DNA of 64,000 nucleotides from Mobula hypostoma (taxonomy: Eukaryota). Positions within the stretch are counted from its first letter, which is position 1. The number at the start of each line of letters is the position of its first letter. Made by a program: the position numbers and the translations under genes. The notes below the pieces were generated by a model, which had not been told where the DNA came from, ran no database searches, and was given only the letters and a program-made list of their open reading frames with translations. Where the stretch lies: NCBI RefSeq assembly GCF_963921235.1, contig NC_086108.1, positions 61,940,001 to 62,004,000 on the forward strand. Direction: 5' to 3'. Below are positions 1 to 59,666 of this stretch, in pieces.

Positions 1-22
1 AAAAGCATGTTGTGTTAAATTA

Positions 23-182
23 CACAACAAAATGCTGGTGGAACACAGGATGCCAGGCAGCATCTATAGGAAGAGGTACAGTTGACGTTTCGGGCTGAGA
101 CCCTTCGCCCTGACCTGCTGCGTTCCACCAGCATTTTGTGTGTGTTGCTTGAATTTCCAGCATCTGCAGATTTCCTCGTGTT
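23..182. mobile_element. Short fold-back Penelope-terminus derivative
   Basis: Left arm acacaacaaaatgctggtggaac is the reverse complement of right arm gttccaccagcattttgtgtgt. It shares sequence with the PLE 3' end at 23000-23100. Flanked by direct repeat tgttaaatta (13-22 and 183-192). Confidence 0.8.
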
Positions 183-1724
183 TGTTAAATTAATTCAATT
201 CAAATGAAAACTTGGGAAAAACTCACAAAGTAGGTAAACTTGGTCTTCAGTACAAAGCCCTATGCAAAACTTTGATTTTTTGCTGATCCTTTACATAGTG
301 TTGAACAACTACAGACAATAATGTGTGGAACTCTTCAACAATTATTGATAAAGCAATAATCTTAAATACCGTGAAAATTACTCAGGGGATAACATGTGAC
401 CCATGTTGGAGATACTCTCCACAGGTGCTGCTTGACCTGCTGAGCATTTTATTGTTACTACTTCTGACATTTGTATGTTTAAAGGTGATTTTAAACATAC
501 AAGTTGTTTTGCTCAAAATTTACAGTTTTGAAGCTAATGAAGTCTCTTTCTCCTTTACATTGTAGCTTTCCCTCCTTTGGTTCTTTCCAGACTCAGCTGT
601 AACAAGGAACACCGTGAAAACTGAAGTGGCAGGCAGCAAGGGTACCGAAGACTGCAGCAGATCCAGCACCTACCAGAAGACCCACCAGCTACCAGCCCCA
701 GTAGGCAACCGTGAAAAAGTAATCAGGGTGTGAACCTTGACAAAAGGTCAGAACAGCTCAGGTTAGACTTTGGGTGACAGATAACAGATTTTGCAGAACA
801 GCAGTATTTCATGTTAGGAACTGTTAGGAATTTGCAGGGACATTTTAATTGCCTGTATTATTGCTCAGTGAATCTCTTCCATATAAACCTCCAGAAAAAA
901 AAATGAAGCAAAACACTGAGGAACTTAAGTGACATATTCTACATATTTTCAAATATAATGAGCACAACTGTTGTTGTATTCGTATTTACATTAAAGTCAA
1001 TAATCCAATAGTTGAAACAGCATTTGATATTAGATAAATCAATGTGACTTCCACTAATGTAATGGAGATAATACTTCATAGCATGATATTGTTTAAATTG
1101 GATTATTGTATGGACCAGAAACATGTATTTTCTGCTTTACGTGAAAAAGATGAAAGCTTCCCCAATCTGCCGACAGTCAACACTTGAAGACTTTAACTTC
1201 CTCCCATTTCTGTCAGTACCCTTAGTCCTGCTACTAGTTTACAGAGGCATTCACTCTCCTGTTTCAGCTGCCCATTCTTGTCACTGTCAGTCAGTATTGC
1301 ACCATAGCTGACATCACTGATAAGTCTGGTGTTTCATAAAGCCCTTGCCTGTCATTTACCAACATGGTTTTACCTCCAAGAGTGATAGGACGGCAATAAG
1401 AAGCGAAGACCGTGGATGATTATCCCCATCTGATTAGCCCACCTGCTGAGAAATCACTTAAAGTAACCCTACCAGCAGTGAGATCAGCTAATTCACCATA
1501 AAGAATAGATCCAACGCAAGACCTAGCTGGGTTGCAGGCTTCAGTTTCACCTGAGAGAGTGCAGCTCCCAAATGAGCCCCTGGCAGAGCTCTCAAGCGTT
1601 TGCAGAATTATTCATTCATTTATGCTGAATAATTCCAAGAACATTTGGAGTTTTCAAAAGCAAAATAGGTGCTTCATGATACAAAACTCAGAAATATTTT
1701 ATATAAAAAGCAATACTGGATATT

Positions 1725-9650: not shown

Positions 9651-11349
9651 AGGCATGAATGAAGTCATCGGAGAAAAGTACTGGTAGTTATGAAACAGCC
9701 TCTTTGACATACTGTGGTACAGCAGGCATCATATCGAGATCTTTTTGGTGGAAAGAACTTCTTGGCCCAGCCCTACACAACATTTTATGTGGTACAGTTC
9801 AAAGAAAAATTCAGAACAATTCAAACAAATCCATATTTACAATGCTTCCTTTGATCTATACACCTCATTCACACCCATACTACAGACATCCAAGTACACA
9901 CAAATAATGAAATTAAGTCAGTGTTGTCTACCCATTGTTCAGAGTTGCACTTTAGATTTAATCTAAAATCCATATTCAGATCAGAAATTTGGTTATTGAA
10001 GTCAATATTAGCATAGTATTATAGAATGTGAATTACATAGGAACTTAATGAGTCATATCACCAAGATGCTTCTAAGAATTTTGGTGACAAGAGCTAAAGG
10101 TAAGATACAAGCTGAAATAGGCAAAGAACAATGTGGTTTTGTGGAAGACAAAGGTACAAGAAACACATTATTGATGTTAAGGATACTATCAGAATGAGCT
10201 ATTCAAGTGCAAAAAGATCTGTTTGTTTGTTTTATCAACTACACAAAAGCATTTGATAAAGTGAAGCACAATAAGTCATTTGAAATATTACAGAAAACTC
10301 TAGATCTAGATTCGAAAGACCTCTGCCTAATCAGAAATCTGTACTGGGAACAAACTGCTGCTATAAGAATAGATGGAGAAGTGAGTCAGTTTATGAAAAT
10401 CAAGAGAGGCATTGGACAAGGGTGTGTTTTCTCCCCTGATTTATTTAATGTGTACAGTGAAACGATATTACAAAAAATAAGAGACACCTTGGGAAGCAAT
10501 GTTGGCAGTGAAAACATCAATAATTTCAGATATGCAGATGACACTGTGTTAATTGCAAGTATGGAGGAAGAACTACAATACTTAATTGATATAATTGTTG
10601 AAGAAAGTGCAAAAGTGGGTCTATCTGTCAACTGCAAAAAGACAGAATGTATGGTGATATCCAAAAAGAAGGAGAATCCTATCTGCAGGCTGAGACTAAA
10701 TGGGGAAGACATAAAACAAGTACAGAACTTTTGCTGCTTAGGAAGCTGGGTGACATCAGATGGCAGGTGCGACTTGGACATCAAGAGAAGAATAGGGATG
10801 GCAAAAAACACCTTTACGAGAATGAAGAGTATACTGACCAATACTAAACTAAGCATGACAACCCGCCTCAAAGTACTGAAATATTACGTTTATCCAGTTA
10901 TGTTATATGGCTCAGAATGTTGGACAATATCTAGTAACATGAGGAAATGAATTGTAGCAGCGGAGTTATGGTTTTTGAAGAGGATGCAAAGAATATCATG
11001 GAAAAAACGAATATCTAACGAGGATGTCATGAACAGAGCAAACACAAAAAGAGAAATAATGTATGAGATCATGAAAAGGCAAGGTAACTTCATTGGACAT
11101 GTGATTAGGAAAGAGGAGTTAGAATGCTTGATAATTATGGGAAAGATTGAAGGGAAGAAAGCAAGAGGAAGACAAAGACAAATGCTGATGGAAACAGCAA
11201 CCAGAGAACTGGAAATGAATACCAATGAATTGATCCACTTGACCCAAAACAGGAGTGTGTGGGCCATGGCAGTCAAAGCTCAAACTGGGCATAGCACCTG
11301 ATGATGATGATGATTAGCTTAATGTCCTAACCCCCAAAACACCCTAACA
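9651..11349 (-). repeat. 5' LTR, probably split by the RTE insertion (9651-10050 plus about 11325-11349)
   Basis: 9655-9965 aligns with the 3' LTR. aaaacaccctaaca (11336-11349) resembles the 3' LTR end aaaaacactccaaca. cttaatg is duplicated either side of the RTE. Confidence 0.65.
10051..11314 (+). mobile_element. RTE-clade LINE, 5'-truncated
   Basis: ORF 10207-10950 is an RT (KAFD, QGCVFSP, YADD). C-terminal ORF 10975-11301 (GKIEGKKARGRQR). (TGA)n tail. Confidence 0.92.
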
Positions 11350-14843: not shown

Positions 14844-15491
14844 AACAACAGGAATTCTGCAGATGCTGGAAATTCAAGCAACACACATCAGAGTTGCTGG
14901 TGAACGCAGCAGGCCAGGCTGCATCTGTAGGAAGAGGTGCAGTCGACGATTCAGGCCAAGACCCTTTGTCAGGACTAACTGAAGGAAGAGTGAGTAAGGG
15001 ATTTGAAAGTTGGAGGGGGAGGGGGAGATCCAAAATGATAGGAGAAGACAGGAGGGGGAGGGATGGAGCCAAGAGCTGGACAGGTGATAGGCAAAAGGGA
15101 TACGAGAGGATCATGGGACAGGAGGTCCAGGAAGAAAGACAAGGCGGGGGGACCCAGAGGATGGGCAAGAGGTATATTCAGAGGGACAGAGGGAGAAAAA
15201 GGAGAGTGAGAGAAAGAATGTGTGTATAAAAATGAGTAACAGATGGGGTACAAGGGGAAGGTGGGGCCTTAGCGGAAGTTAGAGAAGTCGATGTTCATGC
15301 CATCAGGTTGGAGGCTACCCAGACGGAATATAAGGTGTTGTTCCTCCAACCTGAGTGTAGCTTCATCTTTACAGTAGAGGAGGCCGTGGATAGACATGTC
15401 AGAATGGGAATGGGATGTGGAATTAAAATGTGTGGCCACTGGGAGATCCTGCTTTCTCTGGCGGACAGAGCGTAGATGTTCAGCAAAGCGG
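14844..15491 (-). mobile_element. 5'-truncated Penelope-like element (GIY-YIG end plus terminal repeat)
   Basis: Minus strand encodes RFAEHLRSV...LPVATHFN...EATLRLEEQHLIFRLGSLQPDGMN. Degenerate hammerhead at about 14940-14976. Perfect 14-bp TSD tcattgttactggg (14830-14843, 15492-15505). Confidence 0.92.
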
Positions 15492-15894
15492 TCATTGTTA
15501 CTGGGTATGCTTTCCAGTGAAATTTGGTTATTTTATTATATTAAAGATAAGAGTGAAAATGATGCATGTTTAAATGCCTTCTCATTGTTATTTCATGTCT
15601 GTTTTTGGGATATGCAATCAAGGATAAATCTGGTTAAACAAAACACGTTAAGTCATGAAGTCGGGTCTCTGGTACTGAGTCTGCCTCTGTATCTCAGAGG
15701 AGAAGGGGGGGAAAAGAGCAGTGCAGTAGTGATAGGGGATTCCATAGTTAGAAGAGCAGACTGGAGGTTCTGTGGAGATGAAAGAGACACCTGGGTTGTA
15801 TGTTGCCTCCAGGCGTCAGGGTCAGGGATGTCTCGAACTGGGTCAACATCATTTTAAAGGGGGGGGTGTGAACGGCTGGTAGTCATGGTATATA

Positions 15895-17878
15895 CCAACT
15901 CTGTCCTTGAGCACATCAACAAGTGTGTAGATAGAGTGACATGACAAAAACAAATAAAAGTTTTCCCCAATCAGAAACCATGGATGAACAGAGAAGTTCG
16001 CCTCCTGCTCAAAGCCAGAGATTCAGCCTTCAGGTCTGGAGACCGAGAGGCTTACAGCTCAGCCAGGGCCAACCTGAGGAGGAGAATCTCTCAGGCTAAA
16101 CACATATACAAACAGAGAATCGAGGAGATTTCAACTCCTTGGACCCCCGGTGCATGTGGCATGGCATACAGGTCATTACAGACTTCAAACCACCTAGTAC
16201 TGTGCCCCCTTCCAGCTCTGCTTCCCTCCCTGATGAGCTCAATTACTTCTACGCTCGCTTTGACCAGGAGAACAAGGAGGTCACCCTCAAAGCGGATCTC
16301 CCACCTGGTGAACTGCCTCTCTCACTTTCCACCTCTGATGTTTGCGCCACCATGAGCAGGGTGAATGTACGGAAGTCAGCTAGTCCAGATGGAAGACCTG
16401 GCCATGTGCGCAGAGTCTGTGCAGAGCAGTTGGCCGGGATCTTCACGGACATTTTCAATCTGTCCCTGGCCCAGGCAGTTGTCCCCACAAGCTTCAAGAT
16501 CACCACCATCATGCCAGTGCTAAAGCATTCCACTGCCACCAGCCGGAATGACTTCCGCCCAGTTGCACTCACCCCCATCATTGCAAAGTGCTTTGAGAGA
16601 CTGGTTCTATCACATCTGAAATCCTGTCTGACCACTCTACCCTGGATCCCATCAATTTGCCTATCGCACCAACAGGTCAACAGAGAACGCCATCTCCACA
16701 GCACTTCACTCTGCCCTGACCCACCTGGACAGCCCCAACTCTTACGTCAGAATGCTGTTCATTGACTCTAGTTCGGCATTCAACACTGTGATCCCCTCCA
16801 AGCTGATCGCCAAACTTCGCCAGCTTGGTATCAGCTCATCCCTCTGCAATTGGACCTTGGACTTTCTGACTAACAGACCCCAATCAGTTAACTTAGACAA
16901 CCTCTCCTCCTCCGCTCTCACCCTGAACACCAGCGTGCCTCAAGGCTGTGTGCTGAGCCCTCTTCCGTACTCCCTTTTCACCTATGACTGCATTCCTGTA
17001 TATGTTTCTAACTCCATAATCAAGTTCGCAGACGACACCACAGTGGTTGGCCTGATCAGAGGGAATGACGAGAAGGCCTACAGGGACGAGGTCCAGCACC
17101 TGGCCGTGCAATGTGCCAATAACAACCTGGCCTTTAACACCCAGAAGACCAAGGAGATCATTGCAGACTTCAGGCATGCTAGGAGCCACACTCACATCCC
17201 CATCTACATCAATGGAGCTGTAGTGGAACGTGTATCAAGCTTCAAATTCCTTGGTGTCCACATTTCCGATAATCTCACCTGGTCGCTGAACTCCTCCATC
17301 CTGATCAAAAAGGCGCAACAGTGCCTTTATTTCCTGCGGAGCATCAAGAAAGCTCACCTCTGTACCATTGAGAGCATACTCACCAACTGTATCTCAGTGT
17401 GGTATGGCAATTGTCCCATATCAGACCACAAAGCACTCCAGCATGTGGTGACAACTGCCCAGCGGATTATCGGCATCCAATTGCCCACCATTGAGAATAT
17501 CTACCATAAACGTTGCCTGGGCAGGGCGAAAAGCATTATCAGGGATGCATCTCACCCTAACCGTGGACTTTTTACTCTCCTCCCATCCAGTAGGTGCTAC
17601 AGGAACCTCCGCTCCCGCACCAGCAGGCACAGGAAGAGCTTCTTCCCTGAGGCTGTGACCCTGCTGAACCTCACATCACAGCGCTAAGCAGTATTGCACC
17701 CATATTGTACTGTCTCAGTACTTCTATATTTGTGTGACGTAGCACTTACAAATTAACTGTGAATAAAAAGTAAGTAACACTATTCTTTGCATTTCTGGTT
17801 AGATGCTAACAGCATTTCATTGGCTTTGTATCTGTACTCGGCACAATGACAATAAAGCTGAATCTAGTCTAAACTAAT
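15895..17878 (+). mobile_element. Rex1/Babar-like LINE, 5'-truncated and frameshifted
   Basis: ORFs 15984-16355, 16139-16765 (DFRPVALTP) and 16752-17687 ([13 protein letters not shown]). Tail gacaataaagctgaatcta. Confidence 0.92.
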
Positions 17879-20333: not shown

Positions 20334-23300
20334 TTCTACACCCGCCCTCACCAAAAATAGTTATGTCCTCATGGCTTTGTAGACCACTCAAACTTATCAG
20401 ACCATTATTAATAACACAGTATTCAAATTAATTTTGTGATTCAACCTGCAGATGCTGGAAATCCAAACCACACAAACAAAGTGCTGGAGGAACTCAGCAA
20501 ACCAGGCAGCATCTATGGAAAAAAGTATAGTCGACATTTCAGGCTGAAACCCTTTGGCAGGACTGGAAAAAAAAATCTGAGGAGTAGATTTAAAAGGTGG
20601 GGGGAGGGGAGAGAGAACGACCAAGTGATGGGTGAAACCTGGAGGGGAGGGATGAAGTAAAGAGTTTGGAAGTTGATTAGTGAAATGAGGTGAGAGAGGG
20701 AAAAGGGGATGGGAAATGGAGAAGGAGCAGAGAGTTTGTCTCCCTTTGTCCCCCTGCTCCCAGTGAGTTCTGCACCCGCCATGACACTGAGCTCTCCTCC
20801 CGCTGCCTCCGCCTCCAAGCCCATTTCGTTGGTGAGGACTCTCCATCCCGCACCAATGACCCCTTCTCCCATTTTCAACCCACCTCCTCTTCCTGGACGC
20901 CCCGCCCCGGTCTTCTGCCTACCCTGGACCTTTTCATTGCCAACTGCCGATGGGACATTAACCGTCTAGACTTTAACTCTCCTCTCTTCTATTCCAACCT
21001 CATTCCTTCTGAATGCTCAACTCTCCATTCCCTCCACACTAATCCTAACCTCACCATCAAACTCGCAGATAAGGGAGGTGCTATACTATAGTAGTCTGGC
21101 GAACTGACCTCTACTTTGCTGAGGCCCAGTGCCAACTTTCAGACACCTCCGCTTACTCACCCCTCGAACAGGACCCCACTAAGGAACACCAGGCCATCGT
21201 CTCTCACACCATCACCAACCTTATTGACTCTGGAGATCTCCTGTCCACCACCACTGACCTCATAGTTCCCGTACCCTACACCTCCTGTTTCTACTTCCTA
21301 CCCAAGATCCACAAACCTGCTTGTCCAGGTAGACCCAATATTTCAGCTTGTTCCTTCCCCACTGAATCCATATCTGCATACCTCGACTGTGTTTTATCCC
21401 CCTGGTTCAGTCCCTTCCTACCTACATCTGTGACACCTCACATGCTCTTGATCATTTCAAGGATTTTAAGCTGCCTGGTCCCCATCATCTCATTTTTACT
21501 GTGGATGGCCAGTCCCTATAGACCTCCATCCCACACTAGGAAGGCTTCAAGCCCTCTGTTTTTTCTGGACACCAGACCTAACCAGTTCCCCTCCACCACC
21601 ACTCTCCTCCACCTAGCAGAACTTGTCCTCACTCTCAATAATTTTTCCTTTGGCACCTTCCACTTCCTTCAAACAAAAGGTGTAGCCGTGGGCACTCACA
21701 TGGGCCGCAACTATGCCTGCTTGTTTGTCAGCTGTGTGGGACAGTCTGTGTTCCAAGCCTACACTGGTGATCGTCCCACTCTTTTTCTATGCTACATCGA
21801 TGACAGCACTGGTGCTACTTCCTGCACCACTCGTCTCTTCATCCACTTTGCCTCCAACTTCCACCCTGTCCTCAAATTCACTTGGTCCATTTCTGATACC
21901 TCCCTTCCCTTTCTTGATCTCAATGTCTCTATCTCCAGAGACAGCATATCCACCGATGCCTATTACAAACCCACAGACTCTCACAGTTACCAAGACTACA
22001 CCTCATCCCACGTTACCACTTGTAAAAATGCCATTCCCTTTTCTCAATTCCTCCATCTCCACCACATCTGCTCTCAGGATGAGGCTTTTTATTCTCGAAT
22101 GAAAGAGATGTGCTCCTTTTTCAAAGAAAGAGGCTTCCCTTCCTCCACCAACAACGCTGCCCTCAACCGCCCCTCTTCCATTTCATGCACGTCTGCTCTT
22201 ACCCCAACCTCCTGCCACCCTATCAGGGATAGGATTCCTTTTGTCCTCACCTACCACCCCACCAGCCTCTGAGTCCAGCACATAATTCCCTGAAACTTCC
22301 GCCACCTCCAACGGAATCCCACTACCAAGCACATCTTTCCCTCTGCCCCAAGTTCTGCTTTCTGCAGGGATCGCGCCCTACACAACCCCCTTGTCCATTC
22401 ATCTCTCCCCACTGATCTCCCTCCTGGCACTTAACTTTGCAAACAGAACAAGTGCTACACCTGCCCCTACAACTCCTCCCTCACTACCACCCAGTGCCCT
22501 AAACAGTCCTTCCAGATGAGGCGACACTTTACCTGTGAGTCTGATGGGGTCATTTACTGTGTTCAGTGCTCCTGGTGTGGCCTCCTGTACATTGGTGAGA
22601 CTGACATAGATTGGAAGACTGCTTTACAGAGCATCTACACTGTCTGCCAGAACAAGCGGGATCTCCCAGTGCCCACCCATTTTAATTCCACTTCCCATTC
22701 CCATTCTGATATGTCCATCCATGGCCTTCTCCACTGTTGTGATGAGGCCACGCTTAGGTTGGAGAAGCAACAGCTTATATTCCATTTGGGTAGTCTCCAA
22801 CCTAATGGCATGAACATTGATTTCTCAAGCTTCCAGTTATGCCTCCCAATATCCTCCCCCCTTCTCTATTTCCCATCCCCTTTTCCCTCTCTCACCTCAT
22901 CTCACCAATCAAGTTCACAGCTCCACGTTTCACCTATCACCTGGTGGTTCTCTCTCCCTTCCCCCGACCTTTTAAGTCTACTGCTCAGCTTTATTTCTTC
23001 AGTCCAGCCAAAGGGTTTTGGCCTGAAACATTGACTGTACCTTTCTCCCCTATAGATGCTGCCTGGCCTGCTGAGTTCCTCCAGCATGTTGTGTGTGTTG
23101 CAGCATATGCCAGCCTATCTGGGGGTTTCCTGACTCTGAGACATCCTCATCTCACTTTCAGCTTCTTTGGCCTCAGCCACTCCTTGTGACTGTTCTTGTC
23201 TGCTTGGGGATGTCTTCCCCCTGTCTGTCACTTGTACCTCTACATGATTCTGTTCCCCTTGCCCCCTGACTGAACTCAGCTTTATCTCCAATTATATGGG

Positions 23301-36084: not shown

Positions 36085-36297
36085 CAGGGAATGCTTCAAA
36101 TTCTGGTCAGTCAGACAGTCTTTATAGTAAGGGGAAAAAAGTCAAGATTTCAGGTCAATGATTTGGAAAATTGAATCTTTCGCTTATCTTCATCACAACT
36201 GATATGCTGATGAAAGGTCATCAACTTGAAATGTTAATTTAATATCTCTCTCCACAGATGCTCTCAGGCCTGCTGGGTATTTCCAGCATTTACTGTC
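36085..36297. mobile_element. Older degenerate PLE-terminus fold-back element
   Basis: ctgatgaaaggtcatcaacttgaaatg...cacagatgct...cctgctgggtatttccagcatt, with a weak inverted left arm. Confidence 0.55.
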
Positions 36298-41136: not shown

Positions 41137-42836
41137 AGAAAGTTGTGACATGTGATCAGAAGATGTAGAACCCTTGTGGGTAGAGGTAAGAAACTGCAAG
41201 GGTAAAAAGACCCTGATCCCTGATGGGAATTATATACAAGCCTCCGAACAGTAGCCAGGATGTGGGATATAAATTTCAAAGAGAAATAGAAAAGGCGTGT
41301 AATAAGGGCAATGTTACGATAGTCATGGGGGATTTCAATATGCAGGTAGATTGGGAAAATCAGGTTGGTGTGGGATTCCAAGGGAGGAATTTGTAGAATG
41401 CCTAAGAGATGGCGTTTTAAATCAGCTTGTTACAGTGGTATAAGGGGAATTATAGAGGTGTGAGAGAGAAAATGAAAAAGTTGATTGGAAGGGGACACCA
41501 GCAGGAACGACGACAGAACAGCAATGGTTAGAATTTCTGGGGGAGATTCGGAAGGTGCAGGATAGATAAATCCCAAAGAAGAAAAAGAATTCCAAAGAGA
41601 GGATAAGGAAAGATTGGCTGCCAAGGGAAGTCAAAGACAGCATAAAAGGAAAAGAGAGGGCATATAATATAGCAAAAATTAGTGGGAAGTTAGAGGATTC
41701 GGAATCTTTTAAAAACCAACAGAAGGTAACTAAAAAAGCCAAAAAGAGAGAAAAGATGAAAAATGAAGCTAGACAGTGATATAAAAGACCATACCAATTG
41801 TTTTTAAAACATACATACAAAGTAAAAGAGAAGTGAGAGTGGATATCAGACCCCTGGAAAATGATGCTGGAGAGGTAATAATGGGGGGGAGGGACAAAGA
41901 AATACCAGACAAATGTACGTATTTTGCGCCATTACAAGTAGTAATGCAGAAATTTGAAGTTTAAGGGGGCAGCAATGAATGTAGTTGCTATTACTAAGGA
42001 GAAAGTTCTTGGGAAGCTGAAAGGTCTGAAGGTAGATATGTCACCTGGACCAGATGGTGTACATCCCAGAGTTCTAAATGAGGTAGCTGAAGAGATTGTG
42101 GATTCATTAGTAACAATCTTTCAAGAATCATTAGATTCTGGACTTGTTCCAGTGTACTGGAAAATTGCGTATGTCACTCCACTCTTTAAAAAGTGAGGCA
42201 AAAGAAAGAACATTATGGGCCAGTTAGCCTGACTTCCGTGGTTGGGAAGATACTGAAGTCCATTATTAAGGATGAGCTTTCAGGGTACTTGGAGGCACAT
42301 GATAAAGCAGGCCAAAGTCAGCATGGTTTGTTTAAGGGGAAAGTCTTGCCTGACACAAGTGTTGGAATTCTTTAAGGAAATAACAGGCAAGATAGACTAA
42401 AGAGAGTCAGTGGATGTTGTTTACCTGGATATTCAGAAGGCCTTTGACAAGGTACCACATATGAGGCTGCTTAACAAGAGTCGGTGGTATTTCAGGAAAG
42501 ACTTCTGGTAAGATGGCAGCATGTTCAAACGCAGTGACCTCTCGGGGGGCCAGTCAGAAGTGTTTTTGTCCTTTTTGTGATCACAGGATAATGTTGGACA
42601 TTAAGAACATCAGGTACTGCAGGTCTACTCCATCAGCAAGCTGCTCAGTGGTGGAGCAGCTAGAGGAGCTGGACTGGTGCGGACTGCGTTACTGCCTGCT
42701 ACAGGAAGGCCTCAGGGTCGGTGCCCGAAGGCAGAGTGCAGTCTATCAGCGAACGACTGCCTTGGACCTTCCTCCTGTGATTGCAAGAACATGTTAGATA
42801 CTGTAATGTAGAATGCTGCAAGTATATTTCCCTTAC

Positions 42837-43053
42837 AACAGGAATTCTGCAGATGCTGGAAATTCAAACAACACACATCAAATTTGCTGGTGAACGCAGC
42901 GGGCCAGGCAGCATCTCTAGGAAGAGGCGCAGTCGACGTTTCAGGCCAAGACGTCCTGATGAAGGGTCTCAGCCTGAAACGTCGACTGCACCTCTTCCTA
43001 GAGATGCTGCCTGGCCTGCTGCGTTCACCAGCAACTTTGATGTGTGTTGCTTG
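42837..43053. mobile_element. Palindromic PLE-terminus derivative
   Basis: About 80-bp inverted arms (42870-42950 versus 42966-43049) with few mismatches. No TSD seen. Confidence 0.88.
42953..42986 (+). ncRNA. Minimal type I hammerhead ribozyme motif
   Basis: gtc-CTGATGA-agg(gtctcag)cct-GAAA-c-GTC-gac: core boxes, stem II, short stem I and a vestigial stem III, as known for PLE hammerheads. Activity untested. Confidence 0.7.
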
Positions 43054-48605: not shown

Positions 48606-49882
48606 GATATTGCTGTTGATCATTGCTGGAGATGTCCATGGTGATCCTGATCATGTCCTTAACTTTGTTTTGTGGAATGAAAGTTACCTGTACATAATTT
48701 TGACTAGATGATTGGACAGTTAATAACCAGTTATTACAGAGGCTTGACTGAGTGCAGTTTTAATCTGGCAGCAAGGATCCTAAGCAATAGGAGTCCAAGT
48801 ATGACCATTAATATCTGACATTGATGTCACAGCTATATGCACTTATCAACTTCATTTTAAGTTGTGGAGAAGCTGGTTTGAGGACTGATAGGACAAAGAG
48901 AATATCTCTGAAAGAATTGCTTTGGGGATGAATTGTAGAAGTTATCTGGTTGATGACTTAATGAGTGCAGTTTGAGAATGAGCATACAAACAAAGGAGAA
49001 TAAAAATGTTGTGCAAAACATGCCCAGCAACCAGAATGGAGAAAAACTGATCAATATCAGAGAGGGATGTTGGTATGTAAACAGCTAAAATGGTTGTTCA
49101 GATACCAACTGGTATAGTGACTTATCTGGAAGTCAGTAATATAAGAAAATCAAACTAGAAATCTCAAGTAAGTTACTTGAAGTTGGAGAATGTGATATTG
49201 AATCTGGAAACTTTTGACTATCTGAGAAAAATGTAATTGAAACCTAAGAATTCAAACTAGCACAAAACTTATGGTCTATCATGCAGTCATGATCCCTTCT
49301 GCATGTTTGTAACACCTGGATACTTAACTTAGGTACTTCAGAGCACTGAGAGTTACCCCCAATGCCCTCCTTTCAAAAATTTGCAAACCCACTGACAGAG
49401 TAAACAAATGGACATCAGAGTCCTCTCCCTGGCCAAGGTACTCATCACTGAAGCTCCAAATACATTCAGTCAGCTCTAAATCGAGTGCCTTTTCAGGAAC
49501 CTGCTGTCAGGAATATAAATGATATGGCCTGTCTATTAGAGCTGTCTGTATGTAATTTAAGATCATCTTAACCCTTTTCTCTATCTACAAACCTATGCTA
49601 AGAGATTAACAGATAGAGAAAAAGATTAAAATGATCTTAAAGCTTCATTCTTTATAATTCCTGATCTTTGGTTATTCAAAATGGGGAAGGAACCAGAGGA
49701 TAGTATTAAGGACCTGAATTCCATTTGCTGGAAACTCATAGAAACCCTGCAAAGTTTAGAAGCTAGCCACCTCCTAATCTACCCTCACACCAACTACCTA
49801 CTGATGAGGTTTGTAGTCCTCATCAGCCACCTCAGAGCCTCCAAACTGGAGTAGAAATGTGTTATTCTCAATCCTTAAAATA

Positions 49883-54282: not shown

Positions 54283-56002
54283 ACATAGAAACATAGAAAA
54301 TAGGTGCAGGAGTAGGCCATTCGGCCCTTTGAGCCTGCACCGCCATTTATTATGATCATGGCTGATCATCCAACTCAGAACCCCGCCCCAGCCTTCCCTC
54401 CATACCCCCTGACCCCCGTAGCCACAAGGGCCATATCTAACTCCCTCTTAAATATAGCCAATGAACTGGCCTCAACTGTTTCCTGTGGCAGAGAATTCCA
54501 CAGATTCACCACTCTCTGTGTGAAGAAGTTTTTCCTAATCTCGGTCCTAAAAGGCTTCCCCTTTATCCTCAAACTGTGACCCCTTGTTCTGGACCTCCCC
54601 AACATCGGGAACAATCTTCCTGCATCTAGCCTGTCCAATCCCTTTAGGATTTTATACGTTTCAATCAGATCCCCCCTCAATCTTCTAAATTCCAACGAGT
54701 ACAAGCCCAGTTCATCCAGTCTTTCTTCATATGAAAGTCCTGCCATCCCAGGAATCAATCTGGTGAACCTTCTTTGTACTCCCTCTATGGCAAGCATGTC
54801 TTTCCTCAGATTAGGGGACCAAAACTGCACACAATACTCCAGGTGTGGTCTCACCAAGGCCTTGTACAACTGCAGTAGTACCTCCCTGCTCCTGTACTCG
54901 AATCCTCTCGCTATAAATGCCAGCATACCATTCGCCTTTTTCACCGCCTGCTGTACCTGCATGCCCACTTTCAATGACTGGTGTATAATGACACCCAGGT
55001 CTCGTTGCACCTCCCCTTTCCCTAATCGGCCACCATTCAGATAATAATCTGTTTTCCTATCTTTGCCAACAAAGTGGATAACTTCACATTTATCCACATT
55101 AAATTGCATCTGCCATGAATTTGCCCACTCACCCAACCTATCCAAGTCACCCTGCATCCTCTTAGCATCCTCCTCACAGCTAACACTGCCACCCAGCTTC
55201 GTGTCATCCGCAAACTTGGAGATGCTGCATTTAATTCCCTCATCCAAGTCATTAATATATATTGTAAACAACTGGGGTCCCAGCACTGAGCCTTGCGGTA
55301 CCCCACTAGTCACTGCCTGCCATTCTGAAAAGGTCCCATTTATTCCCACTCTTTGCTTCCTGTCTGCTAACCAATTCTCCATCCACATCAATACCTTACC
55401 CCCAATACCATGTGCTTTAAGTTTGCACACTAATCTCCTGTGTGGGTCCTTGTCAAAAGCCTTTTGAAAATCCAAATATACCACATCCACTGGTTCTCCC
55501 CTATCCACTCTACTAGTTACATCCTCAAAAAATTCTGTGAGATTCGTCAGACATGATTTTCCTTTCACAAATCCATGCTGACTTTGTCTGATCATTTCAC
55601 CGCTTTCCAAATGTGCTGTTATCACATCCTTGATAACTGACTCCAGCAGTTTCCCCACCACCGACGTTAGGCTAACCGGTCTATAATTCCCCGGTTTCTC
55701 TCGCCCTCCTTTTTTAAAAAGTGGAGTTACATTAGCCACCCTCCAATCCTCAGGAACTAGTCCAGAATCTAACGAGTTTTGAAAAATTATCACTAATGCA
55801 TCCACTATTTCTTGGGCTACTTCCTTAAGCACTCTAGGATGCAGACCATCTGGCCCTGGGGATTTATCTGCCTTCAATCCCTTCAATTTACCTAACACCA
55901 CTTCCCTACTAACATGTATTTCGCTCACTTCCTCCATCTCACTGGACCCTCTGTCCCCTACTATTTCTGGAAGATTATTTATGTCCTCCTTAGTGAAGAC
56001 AG
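54283..56002 (-). mobile_element. Young 5'-truncated CR1 LINE with an uninterrupted RT frame
   Basis: ORF 54375-56108 has NYRPVSLTS, DFQKAFD, GVPQGSVLGP and KFADD with no stops. The first ~35 aa come from flanking DNA. (gaaacata) tail. Confidence 0.95.
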
Positions 56003-57456
56003 AAGGGGTTGGTTGCAGGAGGGGCAGCTTAACTGGCAGCTCAATGTTACAGCATTCTGTTGATTTAGACATGTTAGAACAGGAGAGATTAAAGGGGAAG
56101 AGTGGCATTATTAATCAAGAAGAATGTCACAGCAGTGCTCAGTCAGAAGAGACTGAAGAGTTCCGTTAGTTAGGCTTTATGGATAGAACTGAGGACTAGG
56201 AAAGGTATGACTATGTGAATAGGATTATATTATCAACAACCCAATAATCTGGATGATTTCGAGGAGCAAATTTGCAGAGAGATTGCAGACTGTTGCAAGA
56301 AACATAAGGTTGTGATATTAGATGATTTTAACTTTCCACATATTGACTGGGACTCCCATACTGTAAAAGGTCTAGAGTTTGTCAAATGTGTTCAGGAAAA
56401 TTTCCTTCATCAGTACATTGAAGTCCCAGCTAGAGAGAGAATGCAGTACTAGATCTCCAGTTAGGGAATGAGACAGGGCAGGTGACAGAAGATTGTATCG
56501 GGAAACACTTTGCATCTAGTGATCACAATACTATTAGTTTCAAGGTGATTATGGGAAAGGATAGGTCTGGTCCTTGGGCTGAGATTCTAAATTGGAGAAA
56601 GACCAATTTTGATGGTATGAGAAAGGATCTGGCAAGTGTTGATTGAGACTGGTTGTTTTCAGACAAAGTTGTACTTGGTAAGTGGGAGGCATTCAAATGT
56701 GAAATTTTGAGAGTACAGAATTTATATGTTCCTGTCAAAATAAAAGACAAGGATAACAGATTTTGAGAATTTACTTTTTGGAAGATATTGAGGCTCTGGT
56801 TAGGAAGAAGAGGGAGTTGCATTGCAGGTACAGGCAGGAAGGGAAAATAAGGGACTTGAGAAGTATAAGGAATGCAAGAGCACAGTTAAGAAGGAAATCA
56901 GGAGGGCTAAAAGAAAGCATGAGGTTGCTCTAGTAGAGAAGATGAAGAAAAATACCAAAGGTTTCTACAAATCAATGAAGAGCAAAAGGATAGCAAAGGA
57001 CAAATTTGGTTCCCTGGAAGATCAGAGTGGTAATCAATGCATAGAGCCGAAAGGGATCGCAGATGGATTTTAAGCATTTTTATTTACTTGGGAGACAAAA
57101 ACAGAGTCTACGGATGTGAGGCAATGCAGGAAAAAAGTTATGGACCTTATACAGATTACAGAGGAGGAGGTGTTTGCTACATTGAGGCAAATTAGGGTGG
57201 ATAAATCCCCAGGGCCTGGCAAGATAGTTCCTCTGACCCTGTAGGAGGCTAGTACAGAAATTGCAGGGGCCTCAGCAGAGATATTTAAAACACCCTTAGC
57301 CACAGATGAGGTGCTGGAGAATTGGAGGATAGATAATGTTGTTCCGTTATTTAAGAAAGCTTCCAAAAATAAGACAGGACATTATAGGCTGGTGACTCTG
57401 ACATCAGTCGTGGGAAAGTTATTAGAGGTTTTCTAAGGGACTGGATCATTTTTTAT

Positions 57457-59044: not shown

Positions 59045-59460
59045 CTTGGCGTTCATAATTTGGAGTATTGTGTCCAGTGTTCGTCACCTCAGAATTAATC
59101 CAAGACCTTGGCCTCACTACTTCCCTTGCACTGGATGGTTGATTTCCTCAATTGCAAACTCCAATCAATTCGGAATAGCAACAATATCTCCTCCATGATC
59201 TCCACAAGGCTGTTTGCGTAGCCCCTGCTCTACTCATTTTACACTTATGACTGTGACTAAACACAGCTCCAATGTCATATTCAAGTTTGCTGACGACACC
59301 ACTGCTATAGGCTGAATCAAGGGTGGTGATGAATCAGCATACAGGAGGGAGATTGAGAATCTGGCTGAGTGGTTCTATAACAACAACCTTTTACTCAATG
59401 TCAGCCAAGATCAACTGGCTGATTATTGATTTCAGGAGAAAGAAACCAGATGTCCATGAG

Positions 59461-59666
59461 CAACACACATAAAAGTTGCTGGTGAACGCAGCAGGCCAGG
59501 CAGCATCTCTAGGAAGAGGTACAGTCAATGTTTCAGGCCGAGACCCTTCAGCCCGAAACATCGACTCTAACTCTTCCTAGAGATGCTGCCTGGCCTGCTG
59601 CGTTCACCAGCAACTTTTATGTGTGTTGCTTGAAATTCCAACATCTGCAGAATTCCTCGTGTTTGT
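59461..59666. mobile_element. Palindromic PLE-terminus derivative
   Basis: Perfect 58-bp inverted arms (59461-59518, 59571-59628). TSD catgag(c) at 59455 and 59667. Confidence 0.92.

Follow-up and report, generated by a model that had tools for sequence, protein, structure and literature searches.

A short hammerhead-bearing hairpin in the Mobula hypostoma genome as a probable head-to-head insertion product of a young Neptune-type Penelope-like element

Introduction

A 217-nt hairpin with a minimal hammerhead motif near its centre lies at positions 42837-43053 of a 64,000-nt stretch of Mobula hypostoma DNA (contig NC_086108.1, positions 61,940,001 to 62,004,000; hereafter the window). We propose, with a probability of roughly 0.85, that it arose in one very short head-to-head insertion of an abundant, young Penelope-like element (PLE) of the Neptune type, in which both ends of a staggered cut primed copying of one RNA and the resulting copies were joined. 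Judged from sequence comparison, we conclude that 42837-43053 is a dead-end insertion product and not a replicating unit. An earlier, sequence-only reading of the same letters had taken it for a non-coding, retrozyme-like parasite of a Neptune PLE, with inverted rather than tandem repeats. The single copy is ordinary, and the weight of the analysis lies in the population pattern to which it belongs. The PLE transposition cycle is still described as unresolved in the available text of two sources (PMC8557442, PMC11167929). A stop hot spot at the edge of the hammerhead and a rule relating the lengths of the two arms, both described below, yield exact and testable predictions for the in vitro PLE assay concerning the site of RNA start, the use of one RNA for both strands, and uncleaved RNA as template. 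Mini-hairpins of this kind also carry an annotation risk, as they are easily mistaken for MITEs, microRNA precursors, or new ribozyme elements.

Materials and Methods

The sample comprised 1.464 Mb, consisting of the window, the adjacent 200 kb, and twelve blocks of 100 kb each, picked blind with round coordinates. Counts exclude pieces with less than 84% identity to L189, and insertions made up of three pieces were not treated as pairs. Positions within the element are given as t, the number of bases counted from the end of the PLE tail, where t1 corresponds to 42837 and the reference is a real copy, L189.

Results

Anatomy of the hairpin

The hairpin consists of t-1 to t116 in antisense, followed by t129 to t29 in sense. 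Its left, tail-bearing arm (42835-42952, a PLE-end copy spanning t-1 to t116 with its sense on the minus strand) is 95% identical to the young copy L189, with six differences over t1-116. The right, tail-less arm (42953-43053, a plus-strand sense copy of the PLE end from t129 to t29) is likewise 95% identical to L189, and its 5' end falls at a stop hot spot seen genome-wide. The paired segments, 42865-42952 and 42966-43053, are 88 nt each, 93% complementary, and separated by a gap of 13 nt; comparison of the arms leaves about 30 nt of PLE tail on the left (42835-42864, minus strand) unpaired and with no partner. The predicted RNA fold has an energy of -171.3 kcal/mol (z -23), and none of 200 shuffles folded equally well.

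The two arms meet in a 6-nt palindrome, GAC/GTC (42950-42955), at which t116 abuts t129. This junction takes away two of the five base pairs of stem I found in the parent, leaving a stem I of 3 bp in the hammerhead at 42953-42986 (plus strand). The latter reads GUC (42953-42955), CUGAUGA (42956-42962), the stem II region (42963-42975), GAAA (42976-42979), C-G (42980-42981), UC (42982-42983), and GAC (42984-42986). On L189 numbering the hammerhead spans t131-94, and the predicted cut, after C42983, falls between t99 and t98. The complete minimal type I core with short stems I and II, as the sequence-only reading had described it, is present letter for letter: CUGANGA, GAAA, NUH, both stems, and a palindromic 15.2-16.2. 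CUGAUGA derives from CUGACGA in the parent and CAG in stem II from CGG, both being CpG-decay changes. A minimal-hammerhead descriptor found 43 sites in the 1.464-Mb sample and none in each of five shuffles, whereas Rfam, run over 36-50 kb, returned no hammerhead at E<=10 and only sub-threshold hairpin-type microRNA models; minimal PLE hammerheads lie outside the Rfam hammerhead models.

The inverted arms are thus real, but they do not enclose the ribozyme as had been suggested. The loop proper is 42953-42965 only; 42966-42986 belongs to the right arm and pairs with its own antisense copy, the antisense of the hammerhead's 3' two-thirds lying within the left arm (42930-42952, minus strand) and pairing with 42966-42988. 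Folding predictions agree with the earlier proposal that the long fold-back sequesters the ribozyme, since forcing the hammerhead stems in 42837-43053 would cost 35 kcal/mol relative to the fold-back. The same gap argues for a transcript locked as a hairpin, and not for the two competing folds that had been envisaged with it; self-cleavage of 42953-42986 in this context is predicted to be unfavourable.

We found no target-site duplication (TSD) at this hairpin, the best match being 7 nt, which is the chance level. The left flank (window 42500-42836) is an old dispersed repeat, about 77-80% identical to its best copies and cut at the insertion, and in a search for an empty site the copies of this repeat continued unlike the right flank. 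Because there is no TSD and the repeat is not continued on the right, the insertion site is unreadable, and we assume a deletion at or after insertion.

The parent element

The arms correspond to the end of a PLE whose young copies run on into a GIY-YIG and RT coding region. In one such copy, L186, where the coding region is contiguous with the arm, Pfam detected GIY-YIG at 22.8 bits (cut-off 22.6) and RVT_1 at E 1.8e-5, below the cut-off. Inspection by eye of the L186 translation revealed a Cys-rich C-x4-C-x2-C motif in the RT-EN linker, a mark of Neptune and Nematis elements in the available text of PMC8557442. These features uphold the assignment of a Neptune-type PLE source, although the choice of Neptune over Nematis rests on the host group. 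No Pfam match was obtained with the window's own older Neptune-type frames. All 40 scored genome matches to a 158-nt piece of the ORF 5' part are 100% identical, indicating that the family is young. The tail end (t1) lies 208 nt upstream of the ORF 5' piece in 19 of the 30 loci that reach the ORF 5' part, which identifies full-length units as partial tandems (pseudo-LTR). Hammerhead, arm, and tail together form the 5' start of the full-length unit and the start of the ORF.

At t107, in stem II of the parent, the young subfamily has U and older ones have C (C in 15 of 52 copies), so that G10.1-C11.1 has become G-U. A pyrimidine tract and CAG precede decayed hammerheads in many older related families (330 profile matches in 1.464 Mb), as at 36205-36240 and 23000-23040 of the window.

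A population of head-to-head insertions

The sample contained 27 head-to-head pairs, all but one of which (26/27) combine one tailed with one tail-less arm. In 24 of these 26 pairs it is the tail-less arm that extends further (binomial p 1e-5; 0 of 100,000 permutations), the remaining two breaking the rule. Arm lengths are also correlated (Spearman 0.84): both arms are at most 160 nt in 17 pairs and both longer in nine, and no pair is mixed. The same head-to-head architecture extends over 0.16-4.4 kb, and in most pairs each arm contains sequence absent from its partner. TSDs of at least 10 nt accompany 22 of the 27 pairs, compared with 6 of 209 mismatched controls; the hairpin at 42837-43053 is one of the 17 short pairs and one of the five in which no such TSD was found. 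Similarity searches returned 45 further hairpins, 38 with an exact TSD of at least 9 nt, and in 23 of those the TSD measured 13-14 nt. Thus the insertions of this PLE family, though not 42837-43053 itself, carry 13-14-nt TSDs, and they have two outer ends about 35 nt apart, one per arm. Microhomology at the two outer ends is modest: a match of at least 2 nt occurs in 10 and 14 of the 38, against about 7% expected, and these observed counts are inflated by BLAST end placement. Extrapolated from 17 in 1.464 Mb, some 40,000 mini-hairpins would be present genome-wide. A search-derived hairpin at L032:1496-1727 is tailed on both arms and forms an exception to the one-tail rule.

Clustering of arm ends at the hammerhead's 5' edge

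Among the 95 arm pieces, 28 terminate within t118-137, and t128-131 alone accounts for 14 (3.5 per nt, against 0.2 per nt at t99-117); expressed differently, 28 of the 75 arms that reach the 5' edge of the hammerhead stop within 20 nt of it. Solo copies halt at the same t118-137 hot spot. Its peak coincides with the 5' strand of stem I, and a shoulder at t120-122 with the 5' edge of stem II. Exact-pattern searches of the genome gave 3,253 ends at t129 and 3,458 at t130, each count being limited to three of the four leading bases and about 1 in 8 of the listed t130 sites belonging to another subfamily; 42,925 sites run past t140. Under the same three-base limit the pattern at T131 gave 4,960 sites, judged by eye to be mostly ends at t131-138. 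The sequence context at the t129 and t130 junctions is heterogeneous. Hammerhead cleavage was considered as the source of these template ends and rejected: the cut site, t98, yielded 1,101 exact-pattern sites, about one third of 100 listed being junctions by eye, so that t98 ends are several-fold rarer than those at t129/t130 and form no dominant pile-up. Upstream repeats of tandems that reach t118 behave otherwise, with 0 of 17 stopping in t118-137 (Fisher p 0.001 against 28/75).

At even odds, we read the stop at t128-131 as run-off at an RNA 5' end. Many templates may begin at the hammerhead 5' edge, at an initiator-like TTAGTCC with A at t130, which we take to fit the initiator consensus YYANWYY, and copying would then run off after about 100-130 nt. 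The tandem result counts against this reading; it might be reconciled with such starts if long templates were read-through or circular RNAs and the stubs were copied from RNAs starting in the repeat. Likewise against run-off, an extra G, which is a cap signature, does not stand out by eye before t130 among 100 listed sites, and transcription of D. virilis Penelope starts about 120 nt upstream of the hammerhead (available text of PMC2377424 and PMC4209133). In one sequencing run, 22 contigs had loose ends at t130; these may be DNA or read-through and cannot show RNA starts. At several of the listed junctions, GACGAAG(G) from the hammerhead is copied a second time immediately ahead of GTCC, perhaps by RT slip-back at the stop site.

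Replicating unit or by-product

The 30 best genomic matches to the hairpin have many different centres, and a search with the outer arm only returned hairpins, long inversions, and solo arms alike. The exact centre junction recurs in 15 exact-pattern copies in 3.48 Gb. These vary both in their outer ends and in the markers of their subfamilies, and in four of them the tail is on the opposite side. In the blind sample, the six-site subfamily haplotypes of 20 of 24 short pieces match those of long pieces. Absence of excess conservation in CUGANGA/GAAA was one of two findings that the sequence-only reading had named as speaking against itself, and we saw no such excess: among 52 copies, non-CpG changes affect 4/520 core positions and 39/3222 others.

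A retrozyme is defined by at least two consecutive head-to-tail units with complete hammerheads, and here a single hammerhead lies between inverted arms; a unit of fixed sequence is likewise rejected, as junctions vary and haplotypes are common to short and long pieces. A MITE needs symmetric TIRs and a fixed length, but the present ends are asymmetric by about 35 nt and length is continuous.

It is therefore very improbable that the hairpin is a parasite propagating itself, its transcript being cleaved by the hammerhead and put back into the genome whole by the Neptune RT. Such a cycle would suit the abundance of short hairpins (the 17 sampled and 40,000 extrapolated), the fact that 12 of 17 short hairpins retain the CUGA start on one arm or both, and the recurrence of one palindromic junction, which by eye is present at some 15-17 of the 100 t129 sites listed. 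It is at odds with the varying junctions, with the spread of the exact junction over several subfamilies and both tail orientations, and with the sharing of haplotypes and of the same architecture with insertions on the kilobase scale. Moreover, no tandem hammerheads occur on one strand, the fold-back is the preferred predicted structure, and the hammerhead core shows no excess conservation.

Discussion

A model for the origin of short hairpins

In the explanation that we favour, full-length units are the partial tandems described above, with hammerhead, arm, and tail at their 5' start, and insertions of the family have 13-14-nt TSDs and two outer ends, one per arm. An RT dimer may start at both sites on one RNA, with the RT that starts further 5' taking the lead; it is for this reason that the tail-less arm would reach furthest. 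This step is consistent with the in vitro behaviour of an anole PLE, for which the available text of PMC11167929 describes cutting and extension of both strands from two adjacent internal start sites, a predicted dimer, and the use of uncleaved RNA as template. Where the template begins at the hammerhead edge, both copies would remain short, and the two cDNA ends would be joined at short matches such as GAC/GTC. A transcript of 42837-43053 is predicted to fold into a long hairpin and to escape cleavage, and the copy would decay neutrally. One RNA copied by two RTs about 35 nt apart, with the 5' one leading, would explain why only one side has a tail and why arm lengths are correlated yet unequal, whereas two independent copying events would not yield correlated arms.

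More tentatively, and at somewhat less than even odds, the stubs may be a fossil record of both steps: of an RT dimer priming from the two cut strands at sites about 35 nt apart on one RNA, and of RNAs starting from the hammerhead's first base that give rise to retrovirus-like strong-stop cDNAs. If this is so, the transcript would open with the hammerhead, which would remove a capped leader of 32 nt, and truncated copies could produce short RNAs that are mobilised in trans, like a SINE.

Alternative explanations

The origin of the hairpins could be as proposed and the stop at t128-131 could still reflect stalling or release of a newly started RT after it has copied the hammerhead, owing to refolding of RNA and cDNA or to a protein on the adjacent pyrimidine tract. 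We regard this as possible though on balance doubtful. The position of the peak matches the 5' strand of stem I exactly and that of the shoulder the 5' edge of stem II, the parent hammerhead is predicted to fold as a -11 kcal/mol rod, and the 0/17 stops on a second pass through tandem repeats fit a barrier met only early in synthesis. However, second arms do not accumulate at t93-98, the place at which priming by a snapped-back cDNA would be expected, and the sharp drop beyond t130 and the local re-copies (ACGAAG before GTCC at several listed sites) fit a physical template end equally well. A 3' splice site at this position, with short copies made from spliced RNA, seems improbable. Such sites comprise a branch-like motif, a pyrimidine tract, and YAG, and the element offers CTTAC/TACTAAC and a pyrimidine tract, with CAG (t133) or TAG (t129) as the YAG; by eye, such a tract and a YAG are found ahead of the hammerhead in young families as well as old ones. 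In D. virilis Penelope, moreover, an intron ends at helix I (available text of PMC2377424 and PMC4209133). Against splicing, the junctions have no common upstream exon, the AG is needed anyway for stem I pairing, and of seven solo short copies with a scored TSD four abut the TSD and three have only element-derived extra bases in between.

As to the arms, in most pairs each has private sequence and a single fold-back cDNA therefore cannot make both unless it is later trimmed; simple fold-back without trimming is ruled out for 24 of the 26 pairs. A self-priming fold-back is argued for in the available text of PMC3846280, and an extrachromosomal fold-back cDNA from whose first strand about 35 nt, the tail, are later trimmed at endonuclease resolution would likewise predict a longer tail-less arm and correlated lengths, and junctions are often palindromic. 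We nevertheless consider it unlikely, given that solo copies have the same two outer ends, with TSDs, that some target-matching bases are present at both outer ends, and that in the anole PLE reverse transcription begins directly at two sites, with extension of both strands (available text of PMC11167929).

Comparison with known systems

An inverted copy, a tail, and a TSD are described PLE features in the available text of PMC3846280 and PMC8557442. To the extent covered by these two sources and PMC2377424, head-to-head insertions of EN+ PLEs resemble ours in the inverted 5'-truncated copy, the palindromic junction, the 30-40-bp tail at one end that overlaps the ORF start, and the TSD (here at family level); ours differ in that arms may be as short as 40-150 nt with no ORF between them, and in the hammerhead-edge hot spot and the longer tail-less arm. 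The arm-length rule and the hot spot go beyond the descriptions in the literature consulted: no description of the t128-131 pile-up or of the arm-length rule was found there, subscription papers and supplements lying outside that scope. The minimal type I hammerheads of metazoan PLEs, as presented in the available text of PMC4209133, share the absence of helix III, the palindromic 15.2-16.2 (C-G), the short helix I, the extra base after position 9, and the existence of tens of thousands of solo copies; hammerhead pairs on opposite strands, 100-700 bp apart, are also reported there. The hammerhead at 42953-42986 differs from these in its truncated 3-bp stem I and in being paired with its own antisense.

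The anole PLE is alike in its two RT start sites bounding the tail, its cut and extended strands, its uncleaved template, and a hammerhead near the ORF start; it belongs to the Poseidon clade and not to Neptune, and the available text of PMC11167929 describes neither head-to-head products nor 5'-end pile-ups. Animal non-LTR retrozymes (available text of bioRxiv 10.64898/2026.07.22.740005) are similarly non-coding, carry a type I hammerhead, and originate from PLE terminal repeats. Theirs is a head-to-tail tandem arrangement, in contrast to the inverted, one-hammerhead, and non-clonal copies described here.

Other elements in the window and elsewhere

A second mini-hairpin of the same PLE family, with a different junction, lies at 59459-59665 (minus strand), its tail-less arm reaching t121 and its tail arm t113, and contains no CUGANGA. 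An older mini-hairpin at 22-191 (minus strand) has a tail-less arm to t122 and a tail arm to t70. The family is further represented by a solo 5'-truncated copy with tail at 14844-15493 (minus strand; t-2 to t646), which has a 16-nt TSD match. An older, broken Neptune-type copy at 20440-23101 (plus strand) is about 78% identical to the young family in its RT and GIY-YIG region and bears an inverted, tail-bearing arm at 20440-20730, thus displaying the head-to-head architecture at 2.7 kb. Fragments of other non-LTR retrotransposons with RVT_1 matches occur at 10198-10950, 16632-17687, and 54375-56114, and an unrelated AT-rich hairpin at 49555-49642 gave weak matches to microRNA models. Elsewhere in the genome, a partial tRNA-like insert separates an inverted arm from a sense copy at L195:1113-1166 (G000:C9 near 94.833 Mb). 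It scores 28.4 bits with the Rfam tRNA model, just under the cut-off of 29, and is negative with ARAGORN; its position suggests that copying switched to a tRNA as template in the course of insertion.
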